64,000 bases of DNA from Dehalococcoidia bacterium (lineage in GTDB: Bacteria; Chloroflexota; Dehalococcoidia; UBA2979): contig JBJKVL010000008.1 of the NCBI GenBank assembly GCA_045562675.1, positions 131,775-195,774 of the forward strand, given 5' to 3'. A program made the translations under genes and the position numbers. Shown piece after piece: positions 10,014-63,676 of the stretch (the stretch's first letter is position 1; every line of letters begins with the position of its first letter). The notes below the pieces were generated by a model. That model was given only the letters and a program-made list of their open reading frames with translations, had not been told where the DNA came from and searched no databases.

Positions 10014-11051
10014 ATGAACGAAGGCAAGAAAATTAAACTTACTACATTGGCAAGCTGTGCTGGTTGAGCAGGTAAGTTAAGTCATGAGACGCTTAAACAA
10101 GTTTTGTTTAATTCAAAAGATAATAATAACGAATTACTAGTGGATAATAGCACTTTTGATGATGCTGCTGTAATAAAAATTACTGATGAGCTTGCATTAG
10201 TCCAAACAGTTGATTTTTTCCCACCAGTTGTAGATGATCCATATACCTACGGGCAAATTGCTGCATCTAATGCTCTTTCAGATGTCTATTGTATGGGCGC
10301 GAAACCATTATCCGCATTGAATATTTTAGCTATTCCTGAAGATTTAGAAAATCATTTTATTGCTGAAATTCTTGCTGGAGGCAATGCTATTGTTCAAGAA
10401 GCAGGAGCAAATATTGTAGGTGGCCATTCGATTATTGATAAGGAGCCAAAATATGGCTTAAGCGTAACTGGCATTGTGCATCCTGATAAATTAGTTACAT
10501 CTAGCAATGCAAAAATAGGCGATCAAATTATTCTTACAAAACAAATTGGGACTGGTATAGGCTTAACCGGCTTGCAGCAAGGCCAAGTTAAGCAACAATT
10601 AGAAAATGAAATGATTAGTTCAATGATTAGATTAAATTCAACGGCTTCAGATATTGCAATCAAACATAATGTACATGCAATAACTGATGTCACTGGGTTC
10701 GGTTTAGCAGGTCATTTATTCAATGTTGCCAATGCTAGCAAGGTATCTATTTCTGTTGAGCTTGCTGATGTACCACTTTTTGATGGGATTACTGACTTGA
10801 TAAAAAATGATATTTCGACTAGTGGATCAAAACGAAATGAGGAAAGCTTTTCTAAATATATTAATAATCTTGAATCCATTACAGACATTCATAAAGCCGC
10901 AATTTTTGATCCGCAGACTTCTGGCGGTCTATTATTATTCATTGATTCTAAATCAGCAAATGCCCTGGTACAAGAATTATCTGATAACGGCGAACAGGCT
11001 TCAATTATTGGAAATGTTATTAAAAAAGAAAAGAGCATCATTTATTTGTGA
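10014..11051 (+). CDS. selD: selenide, water dikinase (selenophosphate synthetase), selenocysteine-containing; in-frame TGA (Sec) at 10065-10067
   Basis: The ORF track begins at TTG 10104. The same frame reads upstream as ATG(10014) MNEGKKIKLTTLASCAG-TGA-AGKLSHETLKQVL, joining FNSKDNN...DDAAVIK...VDFFPPVVDDPYTYGQIAASNALSDVYCMGAKP. This matches E. coli SelD [25 protein letters not shown] position for position, with TGA at Cys17 and Lys at K20. Total 345 codons. Confidence 0.88.
10077..10096 (+). promoter_or_regulatory. candidate bacterial SECIS-like hairpin downstream of the selD UGA
   Basis: TTAA(10077-80)/TTAA(10093-96) outer stem and GTC(10081-83)/GAC(10088-90) inner stem. There is a 2-nt bulge and an AUGA apical loop about 17 nt after the UGA. 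The stem is AT-rich and weak, folded by eye only. Confidence 0.4.
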
Positions 11052-48379: not shown

Positions 48380-49259
48380 TTTCTTCCTCGTCAGGCAACA
48401 AGGCAGATTTTGACCAACTTCTTGGATCTCTTGATGGCCATGAATCATCTTCAACTTGATTTAAAAATTTTTCAATCATTTGATTAAATAGATCAGGCTC
48501 TTCAAGATTTACGGTATGTCCAGTATTTGGAACAATAAATAATCCAGATGTAGGAATACATCTTTTCATAAAAATCGATGGTTCAAGACAGGGCTCATCT
48601 TCATCACCAGTAATTATTAATGCAGGTATATTAATTGCTTTCATTTCTTTTTCTAAAGAAAGAATTGAAGGTCGATTTCTTTGAACTCCTAACATTGTAT
48701 TAGCATGTCCTAAAGATGAAGAATTTTGAAAAAGTCTCTTAAATTCTTCCCAAGCTTTTCGGTCTTTGTTTTGAAGTTGAACTCTCGTAGCACTGATAGT
48801 ATAAACATCTCCAAATTTTTCGATACCTTCTTGAAGTATTCGATTTGCAACATGCTCTGCATCTTTTTCAAAATTACTACGGTCTTTTGTGCTGCCATAT
48901 CCAACGCCCGCAATTGTTATAGATAAACATCTTTCAGGGAACTGAATCCCAAACAAAAGAGTAGCATAACCGCCCATCGACAATCCTATAATGTGTGCTT
49001 TTTCAATATTTAATTCATCTAATATAGATAGAATATCCTGTACAGCAATGTCTTGCGAATAACTTTTCTCTGATTCTGGTACATCAGATGGAGGATAGCC
49101 ACGAGCATTATAGGTAATTGCTTGATATTTTTCAGAAAAATATTCAACTTGCTTTGCCCAACTAGCGTGCTCTCCAGCAAATTCATGTACAAATACTACT
49201 GGAATTCCTGAACCAGTAACTTCGTAATATAATTGCACGTCATTATTTGTTAGCGACAT
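48372..49259 (-). CDS. alpha/beta-fold hydrolase (enol-lactonase/esterase-like)
   Basis: 295 aa. HEFAGE oxyanion region, nucleophile elbow GLSMGG, and C-terminal NTGHTVNLEEP. Confidence 0.82.
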   Translation of the reverse strand: MSLTNNDVQLYYEVTGSGIPVVFVHEFAGEHASWAKQVEYFSEKYQAITYNARGYPPSDVPESEKSYSQDIAVQDILSILDELNIEKAHIIGLSMGGYATLLFGIQFPERCLSITIAGVGYGSTKDRSNFEKDAEHVANRILQEGIEKFGDVYTISATRVQLQNKDRKAWEEFKRLFQNSSSLGHANTMLGVQRNRPSILSLEKEMKAINIPALIITGDEDEPCLEPSIFMKRCIPTSGLFIVPNTGHTVNLEEPDLFNQMIEKFLNQVEDDSWPSRDPRSWSKSALLPDEEENE

Positions 49260-49287
49260 TGACTATTTTTCTCTTTTTAATTATGAA

Positions 49288-50289
49288 TTATTTATTTCCG
49301 AATGTTTCAAAAATCCCGTCATAATATTGGAGATTCACCTCATGCTCAACGCCATGCCTTGGAGAAAAGAAAATAACTCTATCTAAAACCCCGTCATATC
49401 TGCCTACTTGGTCTCGAACATCTTGTGGAGTTCCATATAAACAACATGAATTTAACATATCATCACTAATTGCATCAGCAACATTTTCCATATCACCTGT
49501 ACGAAATGCTTCTCTTACTTCAACTTTTTCTTTTTCCCATCCTCCAGCATCAAAAATATTATCAAAGGCTTTTGGAGAAAGATAAAAGCCAAGATTCTTT
49601 GCCGCATCACGTCTTGCAATAGATCTGTCTTTATGAATTGCTGTAATCACATCACTGGAAAAATTAAATTCATTTCTTTCTCTCGATCGCTCTTGTAAAC
49701 CTTCACCAATAATTGGAAGCACTGAATTTTTAAGATGTTGCATGCTATTAATTGGATGACCAATTAAACCATCAGCGACACGCCCTGCTACTTTTAATGA
49801 AAACTTATTAACCGCAGCTAAATATATTGGTAGTGGATGCTTGCAAACGATACCTCTCGATCCTCTAAGTTGAAAGAATTTTTTTTCCCAAACCACAGGT
49901 TCTCCATTTAATGACATTACATGTTTAATCAATTCAATAAATTCTTGTACTCTTGGTGCGGGATGCTCAGCTTGATCACCAAAAATTCCGAAAAAACGAT
50001 TTAACTGTGGTTTTACTCCTGATCCAATGCCAAACATGCATCTGCCATCAGATAATTCTTGGAGATCGATCATGCTGACGATGTGAGCTATTGGATTCAT
50101 TAAAGGTTGCACAACTACAGCAGTGCCAAGTTTGATTTTTTTTGTTGCTTGAGCAAAAGCTGCTAGTCTTACGTATCCTTGCGGACCACTGACCCATGCA
50201 CTTTCAAATCCTGCTGCTTCAGCTTTTTGAACTATTTTTAGCCCTTCATTAATAGGAATTTCTATTGGGGCGATTCCATATTCTGGCAT
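49288..50289 (-). CDS. luciferase-like monooxygenase (LLM) family oxidoreductase (flavin or F420 dependent)
   Basis: 333 aa. LLM TIM-barrel pattern AEAAGFESAWVS...IKLGTAVV...FGIGSG. Confidence 0.78.
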   Translation of the reverse strand: MPEYGIAPIEIPINEGLKIVQKAEAAGFESAWVSGPQGYVRLAAFAQATKKIKLGTAVVVQPLMNPIAHIVSMIDLQELSDGRCMFGIGSGVKPQLNRFFGIFGDQAEHPAPRVQEFIELIKHVMSLNGEPVVWEKKFFQLRGSRGIVCKHPLPIYLAAVNKFSLKVAGRVADGLIGHPINSMQHLKNSVLPIIGEGLQERSRERNEFNFSSDVITAIHKDRSIARRDAAKNLGFYLSPKAFDNIFDAGGWEKEKVEVREAFRTGDMENVADAISDDMLNSCCLYGTPQDVRDQVGRYDGVLDRVIFFSPRHGVEHEVNLQYYDGIFETFGNK

Positions 50290-50346
50290 AAATTTCTCCT
50301 TAATTGTTATTGAATAAAGATAGCTTGATTATCTACACATTGTACA

Positions 50347-51435
50347 TTATTGAAATGCAGGAATAATTTCTTTTCCAAATTTTTTCATTGATTCTTGTAC
50401 TTTTACTTGATCCATGTCGCCCCAATCAAAACAAGCCATTAAGGAACGGATATCTTTTTTATCAAGTTCGTCAATTTTTTCTTTTACAGTTTTTACTGAA
50501 CCATAAATAACACCTCTTTGTAGGTAATCGGCAACTCCCTCATCTGGAGTAAAAACTGGGGAGCTCCATTTTTGTGAATCGTGACCCTTGGCTTTTTCCT
50601 CTTGATTGCTTTCCTCTGGGTTAAATTTTGCTCGTGTAGTTAGTAGATGTTTACGCAGCCTGTGTGTAGGCTCTTGGACATTTTCATAAGCTTCTTCATC
50701 TGTCTCAGCAACATGAATACTGCGTTGTAAAGTGGAAATGTTTAAATTATTTTGTACACTTTGCTCAGAATGACCAGCAGACTCCATTTGTTCTTTATAG
50801 AAATTTAATCTTTCTACTGCTATTTCAATTCCCATTCTTGGGAGCATAATTGGACAATTGTTAATTGCTGCCCATGCTAATGTTTCGTTAGACGAACCAG
50901 ACATTTGGATGAGAGGATGTGGTGTTTGTACTGGCTTTGGTCTTACGCCAGGTATTGAAAGATTGAAAAAATTGCCATTATAATTTAGCGGCTCGCCATT
51001 TGCTTGCCATGCTTTTTTCATATAATCAACTCCTTCAAACATGCGTTCTCTATGTTCAGTTTCATCGCCATCAACTCCGAATGCTACATATTCAAATTCG
51101 TTAAATTTTGAACCACGCCCAATTCCTACAGTTAGTCTTCCATTCAATAGATTATCCAATAAGCTTGTTTGTAAAAGAATACGAGTTGGATGATGGATAG
51201 CCATTTGCAATATAGCAAAACCTATTCGTATTTTTTTTGTTCTTTGTGCAAGCGCTGCAGCCAATGGTATGGGGTCTCCATATGCGTCTTCTCCAGTAAA
51301 GTTATGCTCAGTCAACCAAGCACATTCAAACCCAAGATTTTCTGCTAATTCAATACAGTCAAATTGCTGATTAATAACTCTGTAATCTTCTTCTGGAGAT
51401 GGACTTAATGGCAAATGAAATGTTCCAAACTGCAT
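50347..51435 (-). CDS. luciferase-like flavin-dependent monooxygenase (LLM family)
   Basis: 362 aa. MQFGTFHLP...AENLGFECAWLTEHNF...IRIGFAIL...VGIGRGS. Confidence 0.8.
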   Translation of the reverse strand: MQFGTFHLPLSPSPEEDYRVINQQFDCIELAENLGFECAWLTEHNFTGEDAYGDPIPLAAALAQRTKKIRIGFAILQMAIHHPTRILLQTSLLDNLLNGRLTVGIGRGSKFNEFEYVAFGVDGDETEHRERMFEGVDYMKKAWQANGEPLNYNGNFFNLSIPGVRPKPVQTPHPLIQMSGSSNETLAWAAINNCPIMLPRMGIEIAVERLNFYKEQMESAGHSEQSVQNNLNISTLQRSIHVAETDEEAYENVQEPTHRLRKHLLTTRAKFNPEESNQEEKAKGHDSQKWSSPVFTPDEGVADYLQRGVIYGSVKTVKEKIDELDKKDIRSLMACFDWGDMDQVKVQESMKKFGKEIIPAFQ

Positions 51436-51495
51436 TATTTTTTCCTTTCAGATGGTTCGAATGTTAACAGTTTGATAATATGTTGTCTGTTGAAT

Positions 51496-52353
51496 TTATG
51501 CAAGTAAAACTGTTCCAACAATGACTTCTTCTTTATTATCTTTTTCTACCCATACTCTCAGCAATTTTTTATCTATTATTGAATAGAAAGCATTAATTTG
51601 TTCACCAGCCCAAACAGGCCTAACAAATTTTAAGCTCATCTTGCCACCTAGAGTAAATTGATTCTCAAAATCTTTTGCAAGCAATCTTGTTAGTAACCCA
51701 AAACCAAATGCCCCTTGTGATAAAGGACCTGGATTACCTTGCTTTTTTGCTAATGCAACATTTGTATGACCATTGACCTCACCAGGTCCTTCAAAGTCAT
51801 TCATTCGATCTTGTGATAACAACAACGCTAATCCTTTCGATTCCCATGATTCGGGACGAGGCGGAATAGGGATACTGGCTTCTTTTTCAGGATGGTTATT
51901 TATTTCTTCTTCTGGAATCGTAAAAAACCAGCTTCTTCTATTAGTTTGCAACAAGTTATCTTTTTCAAAAATATTGGTTTCCCACTCTACATATCCACGA
52001 CCTTTTTTTACAGATTTATTTGTTACTTTGCCTGTTACAGTTAGTGGAATGTCTCTGGGGATAGAGTCAAAGAAGTCAACTTCTAATGTTGCTAATCCTG
52101 CTGATATATCCCTAAAGGGCGTTAATACATTTTGTCCTGAATAATATGTAATATAATCTGGAGCATGAACTAAATATAAGCGAGCATCATCATTATATAA
52201 ATTGCACCATCTATCAATATTTTCTTCAGAGATTGTCATTGTACACTGCGAAGGCAAGGCGCCAAGTTTGAAATCTTCCCAATTTATGCTCTTTGAATCA
52301 TCTAGTTTTGGTATTTTATTTACTGCTGGTATTTCTATTAAATTGCTATTCAT
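51496..52353 (-). CDS. double hotdog-fold MaoC-like dehydratase
   Basis: 285 aa. The N-terminal and C-terminal halves each look hotdog-like (C-terminal half HTNVALAKKQGNPGPLSQGAFG). Confidence 0.6.
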   Translation of the reverse strand: MNSNLIEIPAVNKIPKLDDSKSINWEDFKLGALPSQCTMTISEENIDRWCNLYNDDARLYLVHAPDYITYYSGQNVLTPFRDISAGLATLEVDFFDSIPRDIPLTVTGKVTNKSVKKGRGYVEWETNIFEKDNLLQTNRRSWFFTIPEEEINNHPEKEASIPIPPRPESWESKGLALLLSQDRMNDFEGPGEVNGHTNVALAKKQGNPGPLSQGAFGFGLLTRLLAKDFENQFTLGGKMSLKFVRPVWAGEQINAFYSIIDKKLLRVWVEKDNKEEVIVGTVLLA

Positions 52354-52469
52354 AATAATTCTCCAAAACTAATATTACATTAAACTACTAGTGATTGACA
52401 TTAATTTATTTGAATTTTCATAATTGAAGTGTTTAAATGGATTCTGTAGTATTTTAGAAAGATTAACTT

Positions 52470-53981
52470 ATGTCTGAAAAATTAATAATTGTTACACCGC
52501 CATCTACCAATGGATTCGACGCTGAATCTAGAGGACTCAATGGATTGTTTATTAGAATGTGTTATAGCAGATTATTTGCTTATCCGGCAAATAAAGATAA
52601 TGATGGCAACCTAATTGGTGACACTACTCAGATTGAAGGAGTACTTGCAGATAGCTATGAAGTTTCTGATGACAAGATGACCTATCTAATTAATCTGAAA
52701 AAAGGTGTTAAATCATATTTTGGCAATGAATTAACAGCAAAAGACGTAGTATGGGGCTGGCAGCGAGCTTTTGCATTACGCGACGTAGGAAAATGGGTTG
52801 CAATCATTGGTTCAGTTGTTAGCGCTGATTCTATAGTGGCCGTTAATGATTATCAAGTTCAATTTACTCTCCGTGCGCCTAATCTTACTTTTCTACAACA
52901 ATTAACTAGAGTGACACCAGTAATTAATGATTCTACAGAAGCAAAGAAACATGCTACAGATGATGATCCATGGGCTAGTAAGTGGCTTTTATCTAATCCG
53001 TGTGGATTTGGAGCATATTACTTAGATTCTCTTGATCCATGGAGGCAAGCAACATTTAAAGCAAATCCAAATTATTTTGATCCTGCAATAATCTCAGAAG
53101 TACAAGTATTATTTGAGTCAAGTAGTCGCAAACGGGCTACTATGCTTGCAGATGGTCAGGCTCATTTGATACCAAATCTTGAAACACATTTACGTCCATT
53201 TATTCAATCAGAATTAGATGGAGTGACAATAAGTCAAATTGCTTCAGGCAGACATGCAGTACTTGGCATGCATGTTGATCATCAACCATTCAACGACCAT
53301 TTAATTAGAAAAGCTGTTGCTTATGCAGTGCCTTATGATCGAATCATTGCAGAGGCATATCATGGTGCAGCACATCGATGGACTGGACCTATGCCAATGG
53401 GGACACCTATGTCTCTTGATGCGCAATCATGGCCCTATGATTTTAAATTGGAAGAGGCCCAGAGGCTCCTGGCACAAACTGAATATAAATCAGGATTCAA
53501 AACTGAACTGTTTGTTGATGCAGCTGACGCAGAGCATGTTGCAATGGCAGAAATTGTTGCAGATGCTCTAAGTGAAATAAACATTCATATTGATATAGAA
53601 AAGATGGAATCCGGTATATTTTGGGCTGGAGCCAGGTATTTTAGACCTTTCCCAATGCTAATATATGAAGATTTGCATCAAGTCCCTGATCCGTATTACA
53701 CGCTTGTACATGATTATACAACTGGAGGAATGGGCTTGATTAATGTGGGTCAATATCATAACAATGAACTTATTGAAATTGTTAAATCAATTGAGTCCGC
53801 AGGTGAAATTGATGTACGCCATGATTTGGTGGATAGAGCACAAAAAATAATTATAGATGATTGCCCATATGCTAATTTAGTCGCTCCTGATTTTCTAGCT
53901 GCGCATTCTAATAAAATAACAAATTGTTATTGGGCCCCAGACAGAAGCTTGGCTGTTGAAAAAATTACTTTTTTAAGTTAG
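52470..53981 (+). CDS. ABC-type substrate-binding protein family 5 homolog lacking any signal peptide
   Basis: 503 aa. SBP_bac_5-like core (YLINLKKGVKSYFGNELTAKDVVWGWQRAF). The N-terminus MSEKLIIVTPPSTNGFD has no hydrophobic leader or lipobox, and upstream in-frame stops preclude an extension. Confidence 0.7.
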   Translation: MSEKLIIVTPPSTNGFDAESRGLNGLFIRMCYSRLFAYPANKDNDGNLIGDTTQIEGVLADSYEVSDDKMTYLINLKKGVKSYFGNELTAKDVVWGWQRAFALRDVGKWVAIIGSVVSADSIVAVNDYQVQFTLRAPNLTFLQQLTRVTPVINDSTEAKKHATDDDPWASKWLLSNPCGFGAYYLDSLDPWRQATFKANPNYFDPAIISEVQVLFESSSRKRATMLADGQAHLIPNLETHLRPFIQSELDGVTISQIASGRHAVLGMHVDHQPFNDHLIRKAVAYAVPYDRIIAEAYHGAAHRWTGPMPMGTPMSLDAQSWPYDFKLEEAQRLLAQTEYKSGFKTELFVDAADAEHVAMAEIVADALSEINIHIDIEKMESGIFWAGARYFRPFPMLIYEDLHQVPDPYYTLVHDYTTGGMGLINVGQYHNNELIEIVKSIESAGEIDVRHDLVDRAQKIIIDDCPYANLVAPDFLAAHSNKITNCYWAPDRSLAVEKITFLS

Positions 53982-53988
53982 GCACATA

Positions 53989-55173
53989 TTGTTAAATAGG
54001 TTATTTCCAAATATTTATGAAGGATGGATTATTGTCATCGCATCCGGTTTTGTGATGATGTTATCAGGAAGTACATTTTTTTACGGATTAAGTGCAATTT
54101 TTACCTCACTGTTAATAGATTTTAACTGGAGCGTAGCTTCTACATCATTAGCTTTTTCATTAAGAACTGAAGTACAAGGCTTAACGGGGCCGATTATTGG
54201 TTTAAGTATTGATAAACTTGGTCCAAAATTCACTATTATTGTAGGCATACTTATTGCTGGTTTCGCTCTTTTTGCACTTTCATTTATCAATAACCTTTTT
54301 CAATTTTATTTAGTAATGTTAATTTCCGCTCTTGGCATTGGTGCAGCTGGTGGACAAGTTGGCATGGCTGCTGTTGCAACTTGGTTTGATAAAAAACGTT
54401 CTCGGGCTCTATCAATTATGTCAGTTGGCGGTGGCATCTCAGGTGCCTTAGTATTTCTTGTAGCTTGGTTAGTTGAATCATATGGATGGCGTACCGCATT
54501 ACAAATTTTATCAATATATTATATTGTAGCTGGTTTATTTTTTGCATTTAACATTCGTTCTCGACCAAAGGATCATCATCAACCAATGGATGGTGTTGCA
54601 AAATCACTTGCTGATAGTGAAGAAAATAATATTGAAGGTCTTAGGACTAAGGACGCATTAAAAACAAAAGGTTTTTGGTCTATTGCATTTGCAACATCTT
54701 TTTGTTTATTTGCAGGAGTTCCAATTATATTGTTAACCATTCCCTTTTTAGAATCTCTTGGTTACTCTAAGACGCTTGCTAGCATAGCTATGATTGCTTT
54801 TACTATTTCAACAGTAATTGGTCGTTTAGGCTCTGGATATTTAGCAGATAAATATAGCAACAAGCTCATACTAACCATTGGCTACTTGCTTGTTAGTTTT
54901 GGAACAGGAGCTTTGTTTTTTGCGAACGATATTTATATGACTATGATTCTTTTGTTTATTTGCGGTCCTGGATTTGGAGCATCAATCCCAATTCGAGCAT
55001 CTATAATTGCAGAATATTTTGGTACAATTAACTTTGGTACAATTAACGGTTTTTGTGTATTTGTTTCGACGTTTGGTGCAGTTGTTGGACCATGGATTGT
55101 GGGTAAAATGGTTGATGTCTCAGGTGAATATAGTTATGGGTTGGTTAGTAGCTGGACTTATAGCATTTTTTAG
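53989..55173 (+). CDS. MFS transporter (oxalate/formate antiporter-like)
   Basis: 394 aa with 12 TM-like segments. Contains SIDKLGPKF and LADKYSNK loops. Confidence 0.8.
   Translation: MLNRLFPNIYEGWIIVIASGFVMMLSGSTFFYGLSAIFTSLLIDFNWSVASTSLAFSLRTEVQGLTGPIIGLSIDKLGPKFTIIVGILIAGFALFALSFINNLFQFYLVMLISALGIGAAGGQVGMAAVATWFDKKRSRALSIMSVGGGISGALVFLVAWLVESYGWRTALQILSIYYIVAGLFFAFNIRSRPKDHHQPMDGVAKSLADSEENNIEGLRTKDALKTKGFWSIAFATSFCLFAGVPIILLTIPFLESLGYSKTLASIAMIAFTISTVIGRLGSGYLADKYSNKLILTIGYLLVSFGTGALFFANDIYMTMILLFICGPGFGASIPIRASIIAEYFGTINFGTINGFCVFVSTFGAVVGPWIVGKMVDVSGEYSYGLVSSWTYSIF
55018..55047 (+). repeat. perfect 15-bp tandem duplication (TTTGGTACAATTAAC x2) inside the MFS gene
   Basis: Read directly from the sequence. 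It is in-frame and duplicates the peptide FGTIN-FGTIN. Confidence 0.9.
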
Positions 55174-55256
55174 CAGTACCTTGCTTTGATTTTTGCAGAA
55201 AAACCATCTCAAATGATAAAGTAAAGAAAATCATGCTTCAAAAAAATATGAAAATT

Positions 55257-56065
55257 AATGACATCAATATAGCATATGCAGATAGCGCGGTAGCGGCATT
55301 CCTGTTATTTTTCATCAATGGTTTATACGAATTCTAAAAAAGTTTGGTCAGATTTAGTTCCATATATAAATAAACAATATAGAATCTATTACTTTTGATG
55401 CGCGAGGCTGCGGTGAAACAGATAGACCTGATAATGGATTTACGCTTGATGGATATGTTAAAGATATTATTGCTATAGCAGATGAATTAAAATTTACTAA
55501 ATTTCATTATGTCGGACATAGTATGGGAGGGTTAATAGGAATGTGGCTAACTCATAAATATCCTGAAAGAGTTAATAAAGTTATTTTAATAGCACCTGCT
55601 CCATCTGTAGGAGTGAGAGATGGCTTGCTTTTTGAAGACATGATGAAAAGGAATAGAAGAATCAGACGCGATCAAGATATTGATTTATTAATCAAAGAAA
55701 GAATGAAAATGTCAACAGTTCCAATTACAGAAGAACAAGCTCGAGAAAGGTCCTTCGATTTCCTTGATGTCAGCGACGAGCATTTTGAACAATCTGGCAC
55801 AATGATTGCAAATGCGAACATACGTAAAGAATTACAAGCTGTAACAAATGAAATAATGTTTATAGTAGGTGCAGCAGATTTTTTACTGAAAGATAATTTA
55901 GAAGATTTTTTATCGTTACAAAATGGCTCAATACATGTTTTTAGTCGAATTGGTCACAGTATTCCTAGAGAAATTCCTGAAGAATGTGCAAATGTAATTA
56001 ATGATTTTTTAGAATATGGCGTAGTTAACTATAAAACTTTAAATCAAAGAGAGGATTCTGAATAA
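55257..56065 (+). pseudogene. alpha/beta-fold hydrolase, N-terminal region disrupted by multiple frameshifts
   Basis: Intact ORF 55523-56065 starts inside the nucleophile elbow. Its frame reads FDARGCGETDRPDNGF...HYVGHSMGGLIG upstream to a stop at 55367. Earlier segments sit in other frames: MNINIAYADSA (from 55257), GIPVIF (55295-55312), INGLY, and NSKKVWSDLVPYINKQYRIYYF. Confidence 0.65.
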
Positions 56066-56583
56066 TGCCAATATATACTTTAGGAGGTTGTACTCCTAAA
56101 ATTCATCCAGATGCATATGTTGCTCCATCTGCAGATATAATTGGTGATGTTACTATTGAAGCAAATGCTTCTATTTGGTTTGGCACGGTGTTAAGAGGTG
56201 ATGCAGGGGCAATTGTGATAGGTGAAAATTCAAATATTCAAGATTTATGTATTTTGCATGAAGCTGTTACGATTGGTAAAAACTGTGTATTAGGTCATGG
56301 GGTGCTTGCACATGGCATAACCATGAATGAAGGAGCTGCTCTTGGCAATGGCGCATTGGTTCATGAAGGAAGCACTATAGGCGCCGGTGCTATTGTAGCT
56401 GCAGGTTCTGTGGTAAATGCAAATACTGAAATACCCAAAAATACTATTTGGATGGGTATTCCAGCAAAAATGAGAGGCGAGGTTCCAGAAAGAATTTCTA
56501 ATCGATTTCAAAATACGTTAAGTGATTATTTGGAACTCAAGGTTGGATATGCAAATAGCCTCATACAAGAGAATAGAGATTAA
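56065..56583 (+). CDS. gamma-class carbonic anhydrase-like / left-handed beta-helix (YrdA/PaaY/CaiE) protein
   Basis: 172 aa. Hexapeptide repeats, with WFGTVLRGD and CILH motifs. Confidence 0.82.
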   Translation: MPIYTLGGCTPKIHPDAYVAPSADIIGDVTIEANASIWFGTVLRGDAGAIVIGENSNIQDLCILHEAVTIGKNCVLGHGVLAHGITMNEGAALGNGALVHEGSTIGAGAIVAAGSVVNANTEIPKNTIWMGIPAKMRGEVPERISNRFQNTLSDYLELKVGYANSLIQENRD

Positions 56584-56604
56584 TTTTGTGTTATAATTTT
56601 AATT

Positions 56605-57654
56605 ATGAATAAAAAACATTTTACTGTACTTGAAACAAATGCTTCTCAGGAAATAGAGATTGAATTACGCAATGATCAATTGTGGATTGATGCAAATAAA
56701 TTATCAAATAATTTAGATTGGACCTTAAAGCCAGAAGGGCTTTGTAAAGGCGAAATTTGTGTGCCTGTAAGAGAGCCAAATTTATTATCAGAGGAGAATC
56801 AAATTAACATGACACAATTTGCAAAAGAACTTAATCGTCCAATTGTAATTGAATTAGACAAGGATGTTGTTTTTTTAGGAGAATCAGCGACTGATCGCTC
56901 CGCTGCATTATATGCACATCAAGCACCAGATTTTGAATTACCAGATCTTGATGGAAATATGCATCGCTTATCAGAACATTTCGGTAAAAAACTTTGCCTC
57001 GTTGTGCATGCATCCTGGTGAGGTTGCAGACAAGATTTGCCAGTTTGGCAAGAAATATATACAGAATTATCAAAAAACAATTTTACAGTTTTTTCTGTAA
57101 TGGAAGATAAAAATATTGATGATGCTAAGCCATGGATAGAAGCTGCAAATGCAGATTTTCCATGTACTGTTGATACCAAACATATTGTTTCTGATTTATA
57201 TAATATGTTTAATGTCCCATCAATAGTGTGGATCAATGAGTCAGGTAAAATTGTTCGTCCTAATGATGTTGTGGTTATGAATGAGAGTGGTGCAAAATTA
57301 GTAAAAGTTGACCCTGAAGAATACATTGAAAAAATTCGTAATTGGGTACTTCATGATCATCCTGCTGTTTCGTCTGAGGAAGAATTTTTTAAATTAAAAA
57401 ATGAACGTTCTGCTACAGATGAAGAACAGTTAGCCCGAGCAGAATTTGCAATTGGTGAATGGCTATATATTAATGGAGAAAAGGATTTAGCAGCCAAGCA
57501 TTTTGAACAAGCAACTCAATTATCTCCTGCTGATATAATGATTCAACGAGGCACTATGTCAATGCGAGGCATGGACCCAATGAAGGATTATGGACCTATT
57601 GCTGGTGAAATTATTCAGAAAGGGCATAAGCTCTATACGCCAATTCGTGATTAA
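56605..57654 (+). CDS. thioredoxin-fold thiol:disulfide oxidoreductase (TlpA/ResA/redoxin-like) selenoprotein; in-frame TGA (Sec) at 57019-57021
   Basis: ORFs 56605-57021 and 57037-57654 are in the same frame, separated only by TGA plus 5 sense codons. The joined sequence reads ...APDFELPDLDGNMHRLSEHFGKKLCLVVHASW-U-GCRQDLPVWQEIYTELSKNNFTVFSV...VPSIVWINESGKIV. That is the TlpA/ResA pattern with TGA at the first redox Cys. 349 codons. Confidence 0.82.
57036..57052 (+). promoter_or_regulatory. candidate bacterial SECIS-like hairpin downstream of the redoxin UGA
   Basis: TTTGCCA (57036-42) pairs with TGGCAAG (57046-52). The stem includes 3 G:C pairs and one G:U pair. Apical loop is GUU, about 21 nt after the UGA. 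Folded by eye. Confidence 0.5.
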
Positions 57655-57668
57655 TATAAGGAGGAATT

Positions 57669-58478
57669 ATGGCATACGCAGATTATGAAACACTTGTTAT
57701 CGACATAAAGGATTATGTCGCAACTATTAGAATGAATCGTCCTGAAAAATTAAATGCTTTTGATCAAGTTATGGGCAAAGAACTGATTCGTGTTACTGAT
57801 GAATTAAAAAATGACAATGATGTGCGGTGTACTATTTTGACAGGAACGGGTAGAGGTTTTTGTTCAGGCGTTGATTTAGGACAAGATAGAACACCTGCTG
57901 AAGAAAATATTTTTAGTAGGGATATGCTTGATGAGCATGGTTTTAGTGGAAGGGTTGCACTAGCTTGGAACGAATTAGACAAACCTACAATTGCTGCAGT
58001 GAATGGAGTTGCAGCTGGCGGCGGACTTGGTCTAGCAATGCTTCAAGATATTCGAGTTGCATGTGATTCAGCAAGATTGATTCCAATTTTTGGTCGAAGA
58101 GGCATAGCACCGGAACTAGGCATGAGTTGGACCACTCCAAATATTATTGGGTATAGTAAAACTTTGGAATGGTTTTATACTGGTGATGAATTGTCTGGAA
58201 AACAAGCACATGAACTTGGAATTGCAAATCATGTTGTACCTGATGACCAATTGATGAACTTTTCCTTTGAGCTAGCTACCAAGATAGCTGAATGGAGCTC
58301 TCCTATAGCAACGAGACTCACAAAACGAACAGTTTATGCTAGCCTGAATGCAGATAGTTTAAGGCAACATTTAATTTATGAGGCTATGAATGTAGGGCTT
58401 GGTAGCTCAACAGAAGATACAGTTGAAGGCCGCACTTCAATAATTGAAAAACGTAAACCTAATTTTCAGGGTAGATAA
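57669..58478 (+). CDS. enoyl-CoA hydratase/isomerase (crotonase) family protein
   Basis: 269 aa. LTGTGRGFCSGVDL and AAVNGVAAGGGLGLAM motifs. Confidence 0.87.
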   Translation: MAYADYETLVIDIKDYVATIRMNRPEKLNAFDQVMGKELIRVTDELKNDNDVRCTILTGTGRGFCSGVDLGQDRTPAEENIFSRDMLDEHGFSGRVALAWNELDKPTIAAVNGVAAGGGLGLAMLQDIRVACDSARLIPIFGRRGIAPELGMSWTTPNIIGYSKTLEWFYTGDELSGKQAHELGIANHVVPDDQLMNFSFELATKIAEWSSPIATRLTKRTVYASLNADSLRQHLIYEAMNVGLGSSTEDTVEGRTSIIEKRKPNFQGR

Positions 58479-58485
58479 ACTTAAA

Positions 58486-59319
58486 TTAATCTAAATAATT
58501 ATTAATAATTTCAGCCCATTGTTCTGGATTTTTATCCAAATTTAATAGCGAGGGACTTTCTGGCCTAATTCCCTCAGCATTTGATATTCCATTTACATAA
58601 TCATCATGTTGTGCAGCTAAAAAACTACCACTGCCATGTACGATTAATGTTGGCACAGTAATTTTTTTAATTTCTTCAAAAAAATCATATTTTAACATAC
58701 AAAATGGTGCGGCACCTTCCCATCCAAAGTCACCATAAATTTCTTCAACATTTTCACGTGAATCAAGAATTAAATGGTCAATTACTTTTTCCATTACTCT
58801 ATTAAGGTCTGATTCTGGATCTGTACCACCACTTTTTTCCCAAATTTCCATTAAATGACTGCCATCATTTTTCACTGGATAGTATCTATGAGCATTAAAG
58901 AGTCGATCACGACCTCCGTCTATAGCTGCATAGTTGAATGGCTCCTGTACAATTAACTTATTGATTCTATTACTATGCAGCGCAGCAAATGCAACTGAAA
59001 CAGCAGATCCTGTATGAGTAGAAAAAATGTCTGTTTTGTCAATCCCTAATTCATCAATTAACCAAAGTACAGTTTGAGCATATTGATTTAAGTCTGTATA
59101 AGGCTTTGGAGGTCTTGCAGATTGGCCACAGCCCATCATAGTCATTGCAATCACTCTTCTATCTTTTGCAACTCTCCACATGTGACGTGAATATTGTCTA
59201 GATGATTGAGGTAATCCATGTAGTAATAACAATGGTTTACCTTTACCAAGTTCTCTATATTCTATTTGGCCATCTGGGGTTTGCATCATATGTCTTTTGG
59301 GCATTGATTTTTCATCCAT
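58486..59319 (-). CDS. alpha/beta-fold protein, paralog of 59434-60213 with an atypical nucleophile elbow
   Basis: 277 aa. LLLHGLPQSS region. At the elbow position the sequence is S-T-H-T-G-S, against G-L-S-T-G-S in the neighbouring paralog (aligned by eye). Confidence 0.6.
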   Translation of the reverse strand: MDEKSMPKRHMMQTPDGQIEYRELGKGKPLLLLHGLPQSSRQYSRHMWRVAKDRRVIAMTMMGCGQSARPPKPYTDLNQYAQTVLWLIDELGIDKTDIFSTHTGSAVSVAFAALHSNRINKLIVQEPFNYAAIDGGRDRLFNAHRYYPVKNDGSHLMEIWEKSGGTDPESDLNRVMEKVIDHLILDSRENVEEIYGDFGWEGAAPFCMLKYDFFEEIKKITVPTLIVHGSGSFLAAQHDDYVNGISNAEGIRPESPSLLNLDKNPEQWAEIINNYLD

Positions 59320-59433
59320 ATTTTTCCTCCTGTTTTAAGGTTTCACCATTCTAGCATATTTCAGAGAAAAGATAAAATTCATAATGTAAAATTAAACACA
59401 CACGATGGCTTTTAATTCTATTAAAATGATTAC

Positions 59434-60213
59434 ATGAAAATATTAAGAAATTTCATTGATGTAAAAGGTAATCAGGTTCATTATCGCCAGTGTGGTACTG
59501 GACATCCTATAATTTTGTTGCATATGACTCCTGGCTCTTCAATGATTTATGAAGAATGCATGAAATTGCTTGCAGAATATGATTATCAGGTTTTTGCCAT
59601 TGATACTCCTGGTTACGGTGACAGTGATTCGATTGGTGAAAATAAGACAATAGAAGACTACAGTGAGATTATTAGTGAAGTTATTAAAACATTAAGATTA
59701 AAAAAAGTACATTTAGTTGGACTAAGCACAGGTAGTGTTATTGCAGCAGCTACTGCAATATATTACAGTGATTTTATTGATAGATTAATCCTTGTGGAGC
59801 CAGGGATCTTCAACACTCCAGATAGACAAAAGCGTGGATATCATGGCGTTAAGATTGGACTTGATAAAGATGGACAATATTTTGTAAATAGATGGAAACA
59901 GATTAGCAATGGGTTTGGAGGCAACCTGACCAATGACCAGGCATTTGTTTTATTTTTAGACGCTTTACGATCACACAAACATCAGCATGAAGCATACCAA
60001 GCACTGATTTATTATGATTTACTTAATGATCTACCAAAAATTACCGTTCCTACTCTTTTAATTAGTGGTGCTTTATCTACTCGTGAAGAGCCTATGGAAA
60101 CATTTAGTCAAAAAATAAATGATTCATCAATTGCAATAATTGAAAATGCAGCCAATGCACCTCCTCTCGAGCAACCACAAAAATTTGTTGAAACTGTATT
60201 ACAATGGCTATAG
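59434..60213 (+). CDS. alpha/beta-fold hydrolase
   Basis: 259 aa. ILLHMTPGSS, nucleophile elbow VGLSTGS, and a C-terminal acid/His region. Confidence 0.75.
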   Translation: MKILRNFIDVKGNQVHYRQCGTGHPIILLHMTPGSSMIYEECMKLLAEYDYQVFAIDTPGYGDSDSIGENKTIEDYSEIISEVIKTLRLKKVHLVGLSTGSVIAAATAIYYSDFIDRLILVEPGIFNTPDRQKRGYHGVKIGLDKDGQYFVNRWKQISNGFGGNLTNDQAFVLFLDALRSHKHQHEAYQALIYYDLLNDLPKITVPTLLISGALSTREEPMETFSQKINDSSIAIIENAANAPPLEQPQKFVETVLQWL

Positions 60214-61052
60214 ATTTACAAGTTCATTTTTGGGAACAACATTCTAAAGAACGCCCGCATCTCAATATTGCTATACCCAACTTGCCTTATCCGTTTGGCC
60301 CAGATGAAATGTTGCCTCTTATGAAAGATGCAGGGGTAGAGCATGTTGTCATAGTTCCTCCAGGATTTATGGGTGATAATAATAGCTACGCATTAGAATG
60401 CGTAGAGCAATACGCCGACAAATTTTCTGTTATGGGTTTAGTTGACATAAATAATATACGATTGAAAGAGAATATTTCAAATTGGCTTAATCAACCAGGC
60501 ATGATAGGCATTAGAACTCATCTTAGTAAAAGAATGCGTGATCGATGGTCAAGTGAGCAACAAGCGGATATTTTATGGCAATCATGTAGTGAATATCAAA
60601 TTCCTGTAGCAGTTTTTGCAGGAGGTGAAACTAGTTATTTAGAAAGTGTGTTAAAGAGGTATCCTAGTCTTTCTTTAATTATTGATCATTTTGGGCTTGG
60701 TCCGATAGATGCTAGTATAAAAAACGGAGTAGACTATCAGTCTTTTCGCGAGATGATGTCATTAAGTAAATATTCAAATGTGTATATCAAGGTTTCAACA
60801 TTACCTGTTCGGTCCTCTTCTGATTATCCATTTACTGATATGCATCAAGTTGTTCAGGAAACTATTAAGTCGTTTCGACCAGAACGAATGTTGTGGGCTA
60901 CTGATTTTACACAATCACTAAATAGAAATGGTTCGACATATATTGAAGAAGTTAATTTTTGGCGTTCAGGCATGCCCTTCCTCACGCAAACTGATATCGA
61001 TGCCATACTATCTATGAATGCAAAAAAAATTTTTCCACAATTAAATAATTAG
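60204..61052 (+). CDS. amidohydrolase-2 (ACMSD/TIM-barrel metal-dependent hydrolase/decarboxylase) family protein
   Basis: 282 aa. N-terminal IDLQVHFW, IIDHFG, and C-terminal WATDFTQ are typical of Amidohydro_2. Confidence 0.7.
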   Translation: MAIDLQVHFWEQHSKERPHLNIAIPNLPYPFGPDEMLPLMKDAGVEHVVIVPPGFMGDNNSYALECVEQYADKFSVMGLVDINNIRLKENISNWLNQPGMIGIRTHLSKRMRDRWSSEQQADILWQSCSEYQIPVAVFAGGETSYLESVLKRYPSLSLIIDHFGLGPIDASIKNGVDYQSFREMMSLSKYSNVYIKVSTLPVRSSSDYPFTDMHQVVQETIKSFRPERMLWATDFTQSLNRNGSTYIEEVNFWRSGMPFLTQTDIDAILSMNAKKIFPQLNN

Positions 61053-61648
61053 TTTTGGTTCTTTAGTGTTTCAATAAATAGGTTTCTTTTATTTGTGCTA
61101 TAAAGCTCTTTAAAATTATCTTTGAACTTATTTTTTTCGGGTTCCATAAATAGCTCCACAAAACTTAATTGATTGCTTGCAAGAATTTTTGGTATAGCTT
61201 TTTCCCATTTTTCAATGGAATTAAATGAAAATATTGATTCATAACCAGCAGCTTTTGCCATATCGGCAAATGAAATTGTTTTATTCCCAGGAATTATGAT
61301 GCTGCCATTTGTTTCATATGTGCCATTGATACATACGCAATGAATTAAATTTTTTGGCTTGATATTTCCAATTGTTACTAATGTGCCTAAATTCATTAAT
61401 AAGCTTCCATCACCATCTAAAACAATAACTCGTTTATTTGGTTTACCTAGAGCTAATCCTAATGCATGAGAAGAACCTTGCCCCATTGCACCAGTAAATG
61501 TGTAATTTAAATCTGAATTTGATATGTTTGCCCATGTTGTTGCTGCTTGATATACGGCGACAACAATTTCGTCTGTACGTACATTATTTAATAATTGGAG
61601 TGCTTCTAATCTGTCCATTGATTTTTTTTCATTGTGGCTCACTGCCAA
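61049..61648 (-). CDS. ThDP-dependent decarboxylase beta subunit (sulfopyruvate/phosphonopyruvate decarboxylase-like, ComE-type)
   Basis: 199 aa. ThDP-binding motif LDGDGSLLMNLGTLVTIG...N. The start may be the internal ATG at 61618. Confidence 0.7.
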   Translation of the reverse strand: MAVSHNEKKSMDRLEALQLLNNVRTDEIVVAVYQAATTWANISNSDLNYTFTGAMGQGSSHALGLALGKPNKRVIVLDGDGSLLMNLGTLVTIGNIKPKNLIHCVCINGTYETNGSIIIPGNKTISFADMAKAAGYESIFSFNSIEKWEKAIPKILASNQLSFVELFMEPEKNKFKDNFKELYSTNKRNLFIETLKNQN

Positions 61649-62132
61649 TTAAAACAACATGAGGCTTGCATGCATTGAATGATTTATTTATTAAACTGGT
61701 TATGCTTTGTTCATCTCCTGATTGATCTATGTAGCTGTATTCAATATTCATTGCTTCAAGTATAGGTTTTATAATTTTTAATCCGTAACGATTTGAATCA
61801 TTTGGATCTGTTCCTGATTCATGCCTCAACAATCCTACTAGTAGGAATGTTGGATTGCCTATTTCCACACTAACAGCTCGTAAACAATTAATTGAATCTA
61901 ATAAACCAGTATGCTGGATTAAAATCACAGATTTTTTGCCTGCAGCATATAACCCAGCAGATATTGATATTGCTTCATCTTCTTTGCAGACTTGAATCAC
62001 TTTTATTTCATTGTTATTTATTAGGGGCTTTAATATGTTTTCACTTGTTGTGATATCGGGAACTGACAAGACATATTCTATATTAGATTGATTTAGTTGT
62101 TTTATTATTTCTGTGCCAACAAGTTTTTGCAT
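61629..62132 (-). CDS. ThDP-dependent decarboxylase alpha subunit (ComD-type, pyrimidine-binding domain)
   Basis: 167 aa. VLSVPDITTSE...CKEDEAISISAGLYAAGKKSVILIQHTGL. Confidence 0.7.
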   Translation of the reverse strand: MQKLVGTEIIKQLNQSNIEYVLSVPDITTSENILKPLINNNEIKVIQVCKEDEAISISAGLYAAGKKSVILIQHTGLLDSINCLRAVSVEIGNPTFLLVGLLRHESGTDPNDSNRYGLKIIKPILEAMNIEYSYIDQSGDEQSITSLINKSFNACKPHVVLIGSEPQ

Positions 62133-62195
62133 ATTTTTATATTAGTTTGTGTAAGATATAATTTTCAACTATATAATGTTTCAATAAGGTTAAGT

Positions 62196-62981
62196 ATGCA
62201 TATAAATTTTTCTGATCAAGTTGCTGTTATTACTGGTGGATCAAAAGGAATAGGCCTTGCAACAGCAAAGCAATTTGTACAATCTGGAGCGAAAGTTGTG
62301 ATCTGCAGTAGATCACAAGATAATCTGGATAATGCAGTTAATGAAATTGAGCTTGCGCAAAATGTATTAGCAATACAATGCGACATTGGTAGTTCAAAAG
62401 ATGTTGATAGTTTATTTGAAAAGACATTAGCTACATTTGGCAAGATTGATATCTTAATAAATAATGCTGCTCCAACAAGCTGGGGTCCTTTAATTAATGA
62501 AGTCGATGAAGCAGCATGGCTAGAAGCTGTTAATGCAAAATTTATTGGCTATATTAGATGTACCAAGCTTGCTGTAGAAGATATGCTGCTTCGTAAAAGT
62601 GGCAGAATTATTAATATTGTAGGCATGGGTGGCAGAGGGCCAAACAAACGGTATTTGACTGGGGGACCAATTAATGCTGCGGTTCTCTCATTAACAAAAT
62701 CCTTAGCAAATAATTATGGTCCTGATGGGATTTTGGTTACTGCACTGTCACCTGGTCCTATTGATACTGGCCATCATGAAAATATATTAAATTGGATGGC
62801 TCAAGAATCAGGAATATCGTTTTCTCAAGCAAGAAACAATTTCCTGAATGGTATCCCTGTGCGCAGATATGGCACTCCTGATGAAGTTGCAAATACAATA
62901 GCATTTTTAGCTTCTGATAAAGCTAGTTATATTACTGGCTCTGAATTCTTGGTAGACGGTGGTCGATTTCGCAGCTTGTAA
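62196..62981 (+). CDS. short-chain dehydrogenase/reductase (SDR) family oxidoreductase
   Basis: TGGSKGIG cofactor motif, INNAA, and SPGPIDT. The active-site region is RYLTGGPINAAVLSLTK, non-classical with FabI-like spacing by eye. Start taken at ATG 62196. The ORF track starts at 62097. Confidence 0.78.
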   Translation: MHINFSDQVAVITGGSKGIGLATAKQFVQSGAKVVICSRSQDNLDNAVNEIELAQNVLAIQCDIGSSKDVDSLFEKTLATFGKIDILINNAAPTSWGPLINEVDEAAWLEAVNAKFIGYIRCTKLAVEDMLLRKSGRIINIVGMGGRGPNKRYLTGGPINAAVLSLTKSLANNYGPDGILVTALSPGPIDTGHHENILNWMAQESGISFSQARNNFLNGIPVRRYGTPDEVANTIAFLASDKASYITGSEFLVDGGRFRSL

Positions 62982-62995
62982 TTTAGGAAGAAATA

Positions 62996-63676
62996 ATGGA
63001 TAAAAAACATCTTGTAATTGCAACTGATAATGTATCTTTCAAAAATCATTTTCGTGATTTTTTTGATCAAGACAATTATGAAGTTTCTTATTTTGATTTA
63101 AATGTTGAAACAAATTTAACTGATGACATACTTGTTGATTCTAAAAGCACAGCTAATATTCAGAATGCAATCCAACAAGCATCTCTTCAAAGAGGAACAG
63201 TTGATGCATTTGTTAATTACTCTAATTTTATTCATTTAGACTATTTTTCTAATAATTATGAAGCATTAATGGAATATTGGGATTACAAAGTTCTAGGTTG
63301 TTTGAGATTAATCAGAGAAATCGCTGAAAATATGAAAAGTAATAATAAGGGCTCAATAGTTAATATTATTAATATACAATCAAGATTTCCAGAATTAAAT
63401 GATGCTATTGCGCTGTCAGCAGATATGGCTATTTTAAATTTAACAAAAGGTGTTGCTGCAGATTTGATTGACTATGGCGTTAAATGTAATTCCATTTCCT
63501 TAGGTGATTTTGAATTTAATAAATTTAATGAAAATGAGAAAGAGTTGATTCCAGCAAAAAGACTTGGTCAACCAATTGAACTAATGAACGTGCTACGATT
63601 TATTTTGTCTGATGAAAATCAGTATCTTGTTGGAGAAAATATTAATTTGGACGGAGGCTATTCGCGTCAATTATAA
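62996..63676 (+). CDS. degenerate SDR-fold protein (no glycine-rich dinucleotide motif, no obvious Tyr/Lys catalytic pair)
   Basis: 226 aa. N-terminus KHLVIATDNVSFKNHF replaces TGxxxGxG. The SDR-like C-terminal half is ALSADMAILNLTKGVAADLIDYGVKCNSISLG...GENINLDGG. Confidence 0.5.
   Translation: MDKKHLVIATDNVSFKNHFRDFFDQDNYEVSYFDLNVETNLTDDILVDSKSTANIQNAIQQASLQRGTVDAFVNYSNFIHLDYFSNNYEALMEYWDYKVLGCLRLIREIAENMKSNNKGSIVNIINIQSRFPELNDAIALSADMAILNLTKGVAADLIDYGVKCNSISLGDFEFNKFNENEKELIPAKRLGQPIELMNVLRFILSDENQYLVGENINLDGGYSRQL

Follow-up and report, generated by a model that had tools for sequence, protein, structure and literature searches.

ResA and TlpA are membrane-anchored proteins located outside the cytoplasm. 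ResA of Bacillus subtilis and TlpA of Bradyrhizobium (PDB 1su9, 1st9, 1jfu, 4txo) are single-domain thioredoxin-fold proteins in which a C-x-x-C motif lies in the context W-C-..-C-(R/K)-x-E/D-x-P. A family of TlpA/ResA-like (Prx-like) selenoproteins carrying selenocysteine (Sec, U) in a U-G-C motif has been predicted since 2008, and its members have been detected in environmental metagenomes (Zhang & Gladyshev 2008; PMC13188914). In these two sources, the family is defined by motif and domain only, its members having a redoxin fold (pfam00578 / cd02966), one Sec in U-G-C and abundant cysteine homologs. Here we analyze a stretch of 64,000 nucleotides from a Dehalococcoidia bacterium of the Chloroflexota (contig JBJKVL010000008.1, positions 131,775 to 195,774), referred to below as the window, and conclude, with a probability of about 0.9, that a single gene at 56605–57654 encodes a 349-residue, probably cytoplasmic, three-domain predicted selenoprotein of this family. 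Its central fold and motif context are those of ResA and TlpA, and, in addition, an N-V-P loop is conserved in the family; however, its motif, U-G-C (C-G-C in homologs), is one residue shorter than C-x-x-C, and it possesses two extra domains.

The gene adds one more, mis-annotated member to a family of predicted selenoproteins that had been catalogued before, and it does not change the knowledge of selenoproteins in kind. Beyond these sources, the analysis contributes (i) a quantitative account of covariation in the putative selenocysteine insertion sequence (SECIS) and of its imprint on the encoded peptide; (ii) an apparently family-specific N-terminal domain with a cysteine pair; and (iii) a co-located Sec-containing selD. 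In the 2008 paper and in PMC13188914, which were searched for other terms only, we found no account of the C-x4-C domain, the TPR-like tail or SECIS covariation. In the 2008 survey, the family was commoner in non-marine samples, whereas the present instance comes from a marine Dehalococcoidia lineage. Since the family is large, occurs in many phyla and is strongly Sec-biased among the relatives of the window gene, it is a reasonable target for experiments.

The interrupted gene and its homologs

An earlier note, made from the window's letters without database searches, had proposed that two adjacent open reading frames (ORFs) form one gene, in which a TGA codon occupies the position of the N-terminal nucleophilic cysteine. 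The first frame, 56605–57021, ends ...GKKLCLVVHASW (LCLVVHASW) and is followed by the TGA at 57019–57021, past which the same frame runs on as GCRQDLPVWQEIY... for 210 more codons, up to the TAA at 57652–57654. The TTG at 57037, which is listed as the start of the second frame (57037–57654), is the leucine codon of D-L-P-V-W-Q. Both parts of the proposal are borne out by the homologs, which are colinear with the joined 349-codon frame over their full length and have an invariant cysteine where the window has the TGA.

To be specific, the joined protein, with U replaced by C, was searched against 5.8 billion proteins, resulting in 445 relatives, of which the best 120 were examined. Among these, all 109 full-length homologs (324–389 residues) carry S-W-C-G-C-R at the site; W138, C139, G140, C141 and R142 are invariant alignment columns, and the motif of these full-length homologs is W-C-G-C-R-x-(D/E)-L. 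The remaining 11 are fragments of 191–207 residues that start directly past the motif. These are gene-caller splits, and translation of their DNA reveals an in-frame TGA at the same place, as in HSSW*GCREDLPVWQ, encoded on a 1.6 Mb contig where the local GC content is 73%. A scan of loci, taking one genome per species, yielded 80 loci; counted over all loci retrieved, the codon is TGA in 90 and TGC in 9 of 99 motif instances. The TGA-bearing loci span 33–75% GC, and the metagenome-assembled genomes (MAGs) from which loci derive are labelled as Dehalococcoidia/Tepidiformaceae (Chloroflexota), Methylomirabilota/Rokubacteria, Binatia, Planctomycetia, Alpha-, Gamma- and Deltaproteobacteria, Myxococcota, Actinomycetota (Acidimicrobiia) and others. 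Furthermore, an exhaustive HMMER search with the first frame as query against 1.84 billion cluster representatives (50% identity) identified 664 relatives; among the best 149 of these, 120 stop exactly at ...(A/S)SW and 11 continue as WCGCR. The same gene order was found again in many metagenome contigs, and relatives are present in Tara Oceans data.

The existing annotation treats the locus differently. The public record in question is that of a 'Dehalococcoidia bacterium' MAG, whose proteins MFL2634782.1 and MFL2634832.1 match the window's GroEL and enoyl-CoA hydratase exactly. GenBank holds the first frame alone, as a 138-residue 'peroxiredoxin family protein' (MFL2634831.1); the next accession, MFL2634832.1, is the downstream enoyl-CoA hydratase, and the C-terminal 210 codons appear unannotated in the record. 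A related MAG has the second half annotated as a 'hypothetical protein' (MBR73387.1). This division by gene callers and GenBank would be correct if the TGA were a genuine stop, leaving either two genes, of 138 and about 205 residues, or one gene that a nonsense mutation had inactivated, and the fact that the hairpin described below is not significant in the window alone is compatible with such a stop. We consider this very improbable, as a pseudogene would not be so conserved: a TGA is found at the same codon in 90 motif instances, in distant phyla and at distant GC contents, and in 120 distinct 50%-identity clusters. The supposed intergenic gap of 15 nt encodes the invariant G-C-R-x-D, and the sequence directly 3' of the TGA, the conservation of which the earlier note had left to be examined, is near-invariant. 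The 'start' of the second frame is a leucine or valine codon of LPVWQ, with products of 184, 205 or 207 residues depending on the gene caller, and a thioredoxin fold severed after strand beta-1 could not fold. Nor do the homologs display a conserved, independent pair of stop and start, a finding that the earlier note had named as one that would speak against a single gene. Under the reading of one uninterrupted selenoprotein gene, the same split in at least 120 sequence clusters means that protein databases systematically miss a widespread selenoprotein.

The earlier note had also mentioned a family named 'ResA-like WAxxUGC motif-containing protein'. This family exists as the NCBIfam equivalog NF041054.1 ('WAxxUGC_long'), which the window protein matches at E=1.4e-67. 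The match is colinear, joining residues 26–326 to profile positions 6–329 of 354, and the two belong to the same three-part length class. In comparison with the W-A-x-x-U-G-C of the model, the window's H-A-S-W-U-G-C retains A, U, G and C, but has H in place of the leading W. A literature search for 'WAxxUGC' returned no papers.

Three further observations concern relatives of the gene. A candidate difference at position −4 between Sec-type (Y/H) and Cys-type (W/F) sequences disappeared in the broader set, in which Sec-type fragments often end ...(W/F/Y)ASW; the position is Y, H, W or F in Sec-type relatives. Genomes of Tepidiformaceae/Chloroflexota contain two tandem Sec-containing paralogs about 1.1 kb apart, each with its own TGA and SECIS (loci L016, at 9213 and 10331, L017, L026, L027, L032, L045, L046 and L047). 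The gene, with a bacterial-type SECIS in the coding region, was also detected in two MAGs labelled as ammonia-oxidising archaea, Candidatus Nitrosocosmicus (L019, 70% GC) and Nitrosopumilus (L036, 63% GC); these high-GC contigs are most likely mis-binned bacterial contigs.

The hairpin downstream of the UGA and the evidence for Sec decoding

Described bacterial SECIS elements have a stem of 6–8 bp and a conserved loop G about 20 nt past the UGA, according to PMC4605307. The bacterial SECIS (bSECIS) model, as described in PMC13188914, has a loop of 3–9 nt whose first two positions include a G, a pair between N1 and N2, and a spacing of 16–37 nt; the criteria used also include a stem of at least 4 bp and a minimum free energy (MFE) of −7.5 kcal/mol or lower. 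The hairpin that the earlier note had located at 57036–57052, with 21 nt between the UGA and its loop, is present at that place. Its arms, TTTGCCA (57036–57042) and TGGCAAG (57046–57052), enclose the loop GTT (57043–57045). The core stem pairs 57037–57041 with 57047–57051 and can be extended by U57036-G57052 and A57042-U57046; the loop 57042–57046 reads A-GU-U-U, with the GU (57043–57044) at +25/+26 counted from the U of the UGA. Described in these two ways, the hairpin has a spacing of 20–21 nt between UGA and loop, a stem of 6–7 bp and a loop of GUU or AGUUU. The window sequence folds into a 7-bp centroid stem at about −6.3 to −6.7 kcal/mol. The geometry lies within the bSECIS model; the MFE, at −6.4 to −6.7 kcal/mol, falls short of the −7.5 kcal/mol that 82 of 85 family members reach.

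As the window hairpin is weak by itself, its significance comes solely from the comparison with homologs, for which we used an alignment of 85 unique Sec-type sequences (A2). The consensus following the UGA is GGN UGY MGN NNN GAY YUG CCN GUN UGG CAR, and the conserved form of the hairpin is YUGCC-N-GU-N'-U-GGCAR, for which RNAalifold predicts a 5-bp consensus stem (columns 19–23 with 29–33) and a 5-nt loop, N-G-U-N-U. Over columns 18–24 with 27–34, 96.8% of cells are paired, compared with 88.2 ± 0.8% in shuffled alignments (0 of 500 reach the observed value), and sliding the partner columns leaves only 25–59% of cells paired. The covariation score is 0.229 versus 0.080 in shuffles, again with 0 of 500 reaching it. 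Columns 24 and 27, which are the third positions of the proline and valine codons, form G-C in 39 sequences, C-G in 36 and A-U in 8, and are unpaired in 2, so that 83 of the 85 have Watson-Crick complementary bases at the two synonymous positions around the GU; pair 19-33 is C-G in 79 and U-A in five, the window being among these five. Mapped onto a protein tree built by neighbour joining, columns 24 and 27 require 18 or more changes when their states are taken together, and 15 or more when either is taken singly. Because the two columns have switched jointly many times, common ancestry cannot account for the pattern. The family thus offers natural covariation data of unusual clarity on the loop of a bacterial SECIS.

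Since the codons of the peptide that bears the hairpin are complementary by nature, Cys-type genes are a necessary control, for which 9 genes were available as DNA and 109 sequences as protein. The leucine codon is CUG or UUG in all 85 Sec-type sequences, but CUC in four of the nine Cys-type genes (p=4e-5). Likewise, N1 complements N2 in 83 of 85 Sec-type sequences versus 5 of 9 Cys-type genes, and the median energy of the core hairpin is −10.6 kcal/mol in the former versus −5.1 kcal/mol in the latter. The protein differs as well: residue x of LPxWQ is Val in 77 and Gly in 8 of the 85 Sec-type sequences, as opposed to Ala in 52, Gly in 30, Val in 9 and Ser in 8 of the 109 Cys-type proteins (p=5e-34). 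Val and Gly codons at x supply the G-U or G-G of the loop, and the bias toward them in Sec-type genes indicates that the RNA signal constrains the protein sequence.

The SECIS of Escherichia coli fdhF, which we confirmed to be 100% identical in 5,419 genomes, is likewise a coding-region hairpin located just 3' of the UGA, with an apical GU between a complementary pair. Its loop is G22-G23-U24-C25, corresponding to N1-G-U-N2 in the present family. Compared with fdhF, however, the family has its GU 2 nt more distant from the UGA (+25/+26 versus +23/+24), an additional, unpaired U after N2, and a short lower stem or none; the window hairpin is AU-rich and weak (−6.4 kcal/mol). The SECIS of Moorella thermoacetica fdhA (UUGCCGGUCUGGCAA) is presumably near-identical. 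Within the family, the hairpins of an AT-rich marine clade, comprising the window sequence (57019–57052) and two relatives (L003, L004), have energies of −6.4 to −6.9 kcal/mol compared with the median of −10.6 kcal/mol; as these lie above the −7.5 kcal/mol threshold, standard bSECIS searches might miss such genes.

SelD, the selenium-donor enzyme, is required for Sec insertion. The window contains a selD gene, to which an E. coli SelD query aligned by tblastn at 10032–11021 (35% identity, E=3e-59). It carries an in-frame TGA of its own (10065–10067, residue 18), in the context ...LASCAG-U-AGKLSH, where U stands opposite Cys17 of the E. coli protein. A version with C in place of U scores 373.9 bits on TIGR00476 (cut-off 125); the mechanical ORF list holds only a truncated version (10104–11051). 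The region following this TGA folds at −7.5 kcal/mol (z=−0.57). A SelD that itself contains Sec implies that Sec decoding is functional, and two predicted Sec-encoding genes in 64 kb, one of them selD itself, suggest that this streamlined, AT-rich marine Dehalococcoidia lineage uses selenium. Of the Sec machinery to which the earlier note had tied its proposal, SelD was recovered, but selA, selB and tRNA-Sec were not found by tblastn and a tRNA scan within the 64 kb window.

These data also bear on whether the TGA is read as something other than Sec, that is, as Trp, Gly or Cys through a reassigned code or near-cognate suppression. The genome is AT-rich (window GC, 33.5%), and some AT-rich lineages do reassign TGA. 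Nevertheless, TGA closes 18 of the 83 long stop-to-stop segments of the window, so that it is otherwise a normal stop and the standard code fits, and the TGA at 57019 is the only one in the window that separates two segments of at least 100 codons each. Moreover, the TGA is kept in homologs from genomes of 70–75% GC, a covarying SECIS follows it, a Sec-containing SelD is present, and the residue aligned with it in homologs is always Cys, a classic Sec/Cys pair. We therefore regard reassignment or suppression as exceedingly improbable. One other TGA that links two open segments (33739, plus strand; 68 and 72 codons) was rejected as a selenoprotein candidate, its translation being of low complexity and out-of-frame or non-coding.

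Several results that weigh against a selenoprotein gene of this family, or that bear on its proposed function, are collected here. Taken alone, the window hairpin is no different from shuffled sequence (z=−0.33); at −6.4 kcal/mol it is the weakest of the family, and together with its two AT-rich relatives it makes up the only 3 of 85 that do not reach −7.5 kcal/mol. A scan of the whole window with Rfam gave zero hits at gathering thresholds, an outcome that carries no information on the SECIS, and, as stated, selA, selB and tRNA-Sec were not seen in the window. A neighbour analysis of 85 loci, which was swamped by spurious GC-rich ORFs, revealed no gene that recurs near the family beyond groups of closely related genomes, and no conserved neighbour that would point to a substrate; our literature search found no experimental or biochemical study of any family member. 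Finally, NF041054.1 has a curated cut-off of 300 bits, and the window protein scores 228.5 bits. On the same model, scores of 214–286 bits were obtained for ten other relatives (six Sec-type from other lineages and four Cys-type); since all tested relatives fall under 300 bits, the NF041054.1 equivalog is a narrower clade than the homologous family, of which the window protein is an ordinary member. Given such a strict cut-off, automated annotation keeps missing the gene.

Domain architecture and proposed function

AlphaFold 2 (AF2) was used to model P0003, the nearest Cys-type homolog of full length (42% identity), from an alignment of 73 sequences, and the first frame of the window gene was modelled as well. 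The P0003 model has a predicted local distance difference test score (pLDDT) of 95.2 and a predicted template modelling (TM) score of 0.92, which suggests that the protein would be one compact unit of three domains (Table 1).

The beta-rich N-terminal domain of about 100 residues, which the earlier note had delimited together with its CKGEIC cysteine pair, matched no family in a Pfam scan and has no structural neighbour in the PDB by fold search (best E 0.06); the usher N-domain, considered as a relative at E ~0.06 and a TM score of 0.3–0.4, was dismissed as noise. Relatives from the exhaustive search with a long enough match align colinearly from near their own N-terminus, and the domain is apparently specific to the family. 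C47, C52 and P54 are invariant columns in three alignments, and the pattern G.C....C.P occurs in 132 of the best 149 of the 664 representatives. In the models, C47-x4-C52 lies on a predicted beta-hairpin with strands E45-48 and E51-53.

The TlpA/ResA layout postulated for the central domain was confirmed by structural and profile comparisons. A Foldseek search places the thioredoxin fold (about 105–232) nearest ResA, TlpA, DsbE and StoA, with ResA at E ~5e-11 and a TM score of 0.83, and a profile search of PDB sequences gave E-values of 1e-22 to 5e-24. In the region following the motif that the earlier note had considered a candidate cis-Pro region, N203 is invariant and V204 and P205 are nearly so. 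The profile alignment has a single gap column within the motif, WCG.CR versus WCPpCR, and hence U-G-C is C-x-x-C minus one residue; the compression noted earlier for the window gene is a trait of the whole family rather than of this gene alone.

The C-terminal domain of about 110 residues, described earlier as helical and TPR-like, is all-helical over 236–336 in the AF2 model of the homolog. Matches to TPR_2 reach 19–21 bits, which is below the Pfam threshold; chains of designed consensus TPRs match profile positions 255–306, with no matched stretch passing the threshold singly.

Because the N-terminus, MNKKHFTVLETNASQEIEIELRND, has no hydrophobic segment when read by eye, the protein is probably cytoplasmic, unlike ResA and TlpA; the AF2 model opens directly with the beta-strand domain.

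If the protein is a selenoprotein, C47, C52, U139 and C141 might constitute a peroxidase-type site or ligands of a metal or metalloid instead of serving a ResA/TlpA-like disulfide reductase. AhpC-TSA (PF00578) is indeed the best Pfam match for residues 105–220 (1.8e-15, followed by Redoxin, PF08534, at 6.4e-10), GenBank and the 2008 paper speak of a peroxiredoxin or Prx-like protein, and four invariant thiol/selenol groups with C-G-C spacing are unusual for a simple reductase. Yet the peroxiredoxin motif P-x3-(T/S)-x2-C is absent around U139/C141, the motif W-C-x-C-R-x-D/E-x-P and the nearest structures are those of ResA, TlpA and DsbE, and in NCBIfam the ResA and TlpA models (3.9e-16) outrank those of thiol peroxidases (4e-4 to 1e-2). 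We therefore judge a peroxidase or metal site to be unlikely.

For a disulfide reductase of the ResA/TlpA type, a mechanism can be proposed. Following the established bacterial pathway, SelB carrying Sec-tRNA(Sec) would bind the hairpin and insert selenocysteine at the UGA. By homology with ResA and TlpA, and from the chemistry of selenoproteins, the U139 selenolate would attack a disulfide or another oxidised sulfur species of the substrate, and C141 would resolve the intermediate, giving a strained U-G-C selenenylsulfide. A second redox centre, able to recycle the active site, would most plausibly be the C47-x4-C52 pair, and the TPR-like tail may provide a surface for binding partners. More tentatively, the family could be a two-centre redox machine rather than a plain disulfide reductase, in which the C-x4-C of an undescribed N-terminal fold either exchanges electrons with the strained U-G-C selenenylsulfide or makes up, together with it, a site of four Se/S ligands, and in which the SECIS also fixed L-P-V-W-Q at the start of the active-site helix. 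If true, this would be a clear case of an RNA signal shaping the active-site region of a protein.

Feature coordinates and genomic surroundings

Table 1. Features of the window discussed in the text (coordinates in window positions)
Feature	Position	Strand	Details
selD (selenide, water dikinase; selenophosphate synthetase)	10014..11051	+	ATG 10014; stop 11049-11051
Complete predicted selenoprotein gene	56605..57654	+	349 codons plus TAA (57652-57654); predicted Sec at residue 139
N-terminal domain, ~100 residues, beta-rich	56605..56904	+	AF2 pLDDT ~95 over residues 1-95
Invariant Cys pair C47-x4-C52 (CKGEIC)	56743..56760	+	C47 56743-56745; C52 56758-56760
ResA/TlpA-type thioredoxin-fold (redoxin) domain	56905..57294	+	U-G-C-R-x-D-L-P motif; N-V-P loop N203-V204-P205
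Predicted selenocysteine codon UGA (U139)	57019..57021	+	Position of the N-terminal nucleophilic Cys of the thioredoxin-fold motif
SECIS-type hairpin	57036..57052	+	On codons (D)-L-P-V-W-Q-(E), 15 nt downstream of the UGA
All-helical, TPR-like C-terminal domain, ~110 residues	57310..57651	+	Helices over residues 236-336 (AF2, P0003)

The gene lies within a catabolic cluster (48372–63676; also seen at locus L091) that shows no obvious link to the selenoprotein. It contains luciferase-like monooxygenases, a family III CoA-transferase, several alpha/beta hydrolases, a PaaY/gamma-carbonic-anhydrase-like hexapeptide protein, an enoyl-CoA hydratase, amidohydrolase 2, short-chain dehydrogenases/reductases (SDRs), a major facilitator superfamily (MFS) transporter and a peptide-type solute-binding protein, a combination that we take to resemble descriptions of SAR202-type marine Chloroflexota.

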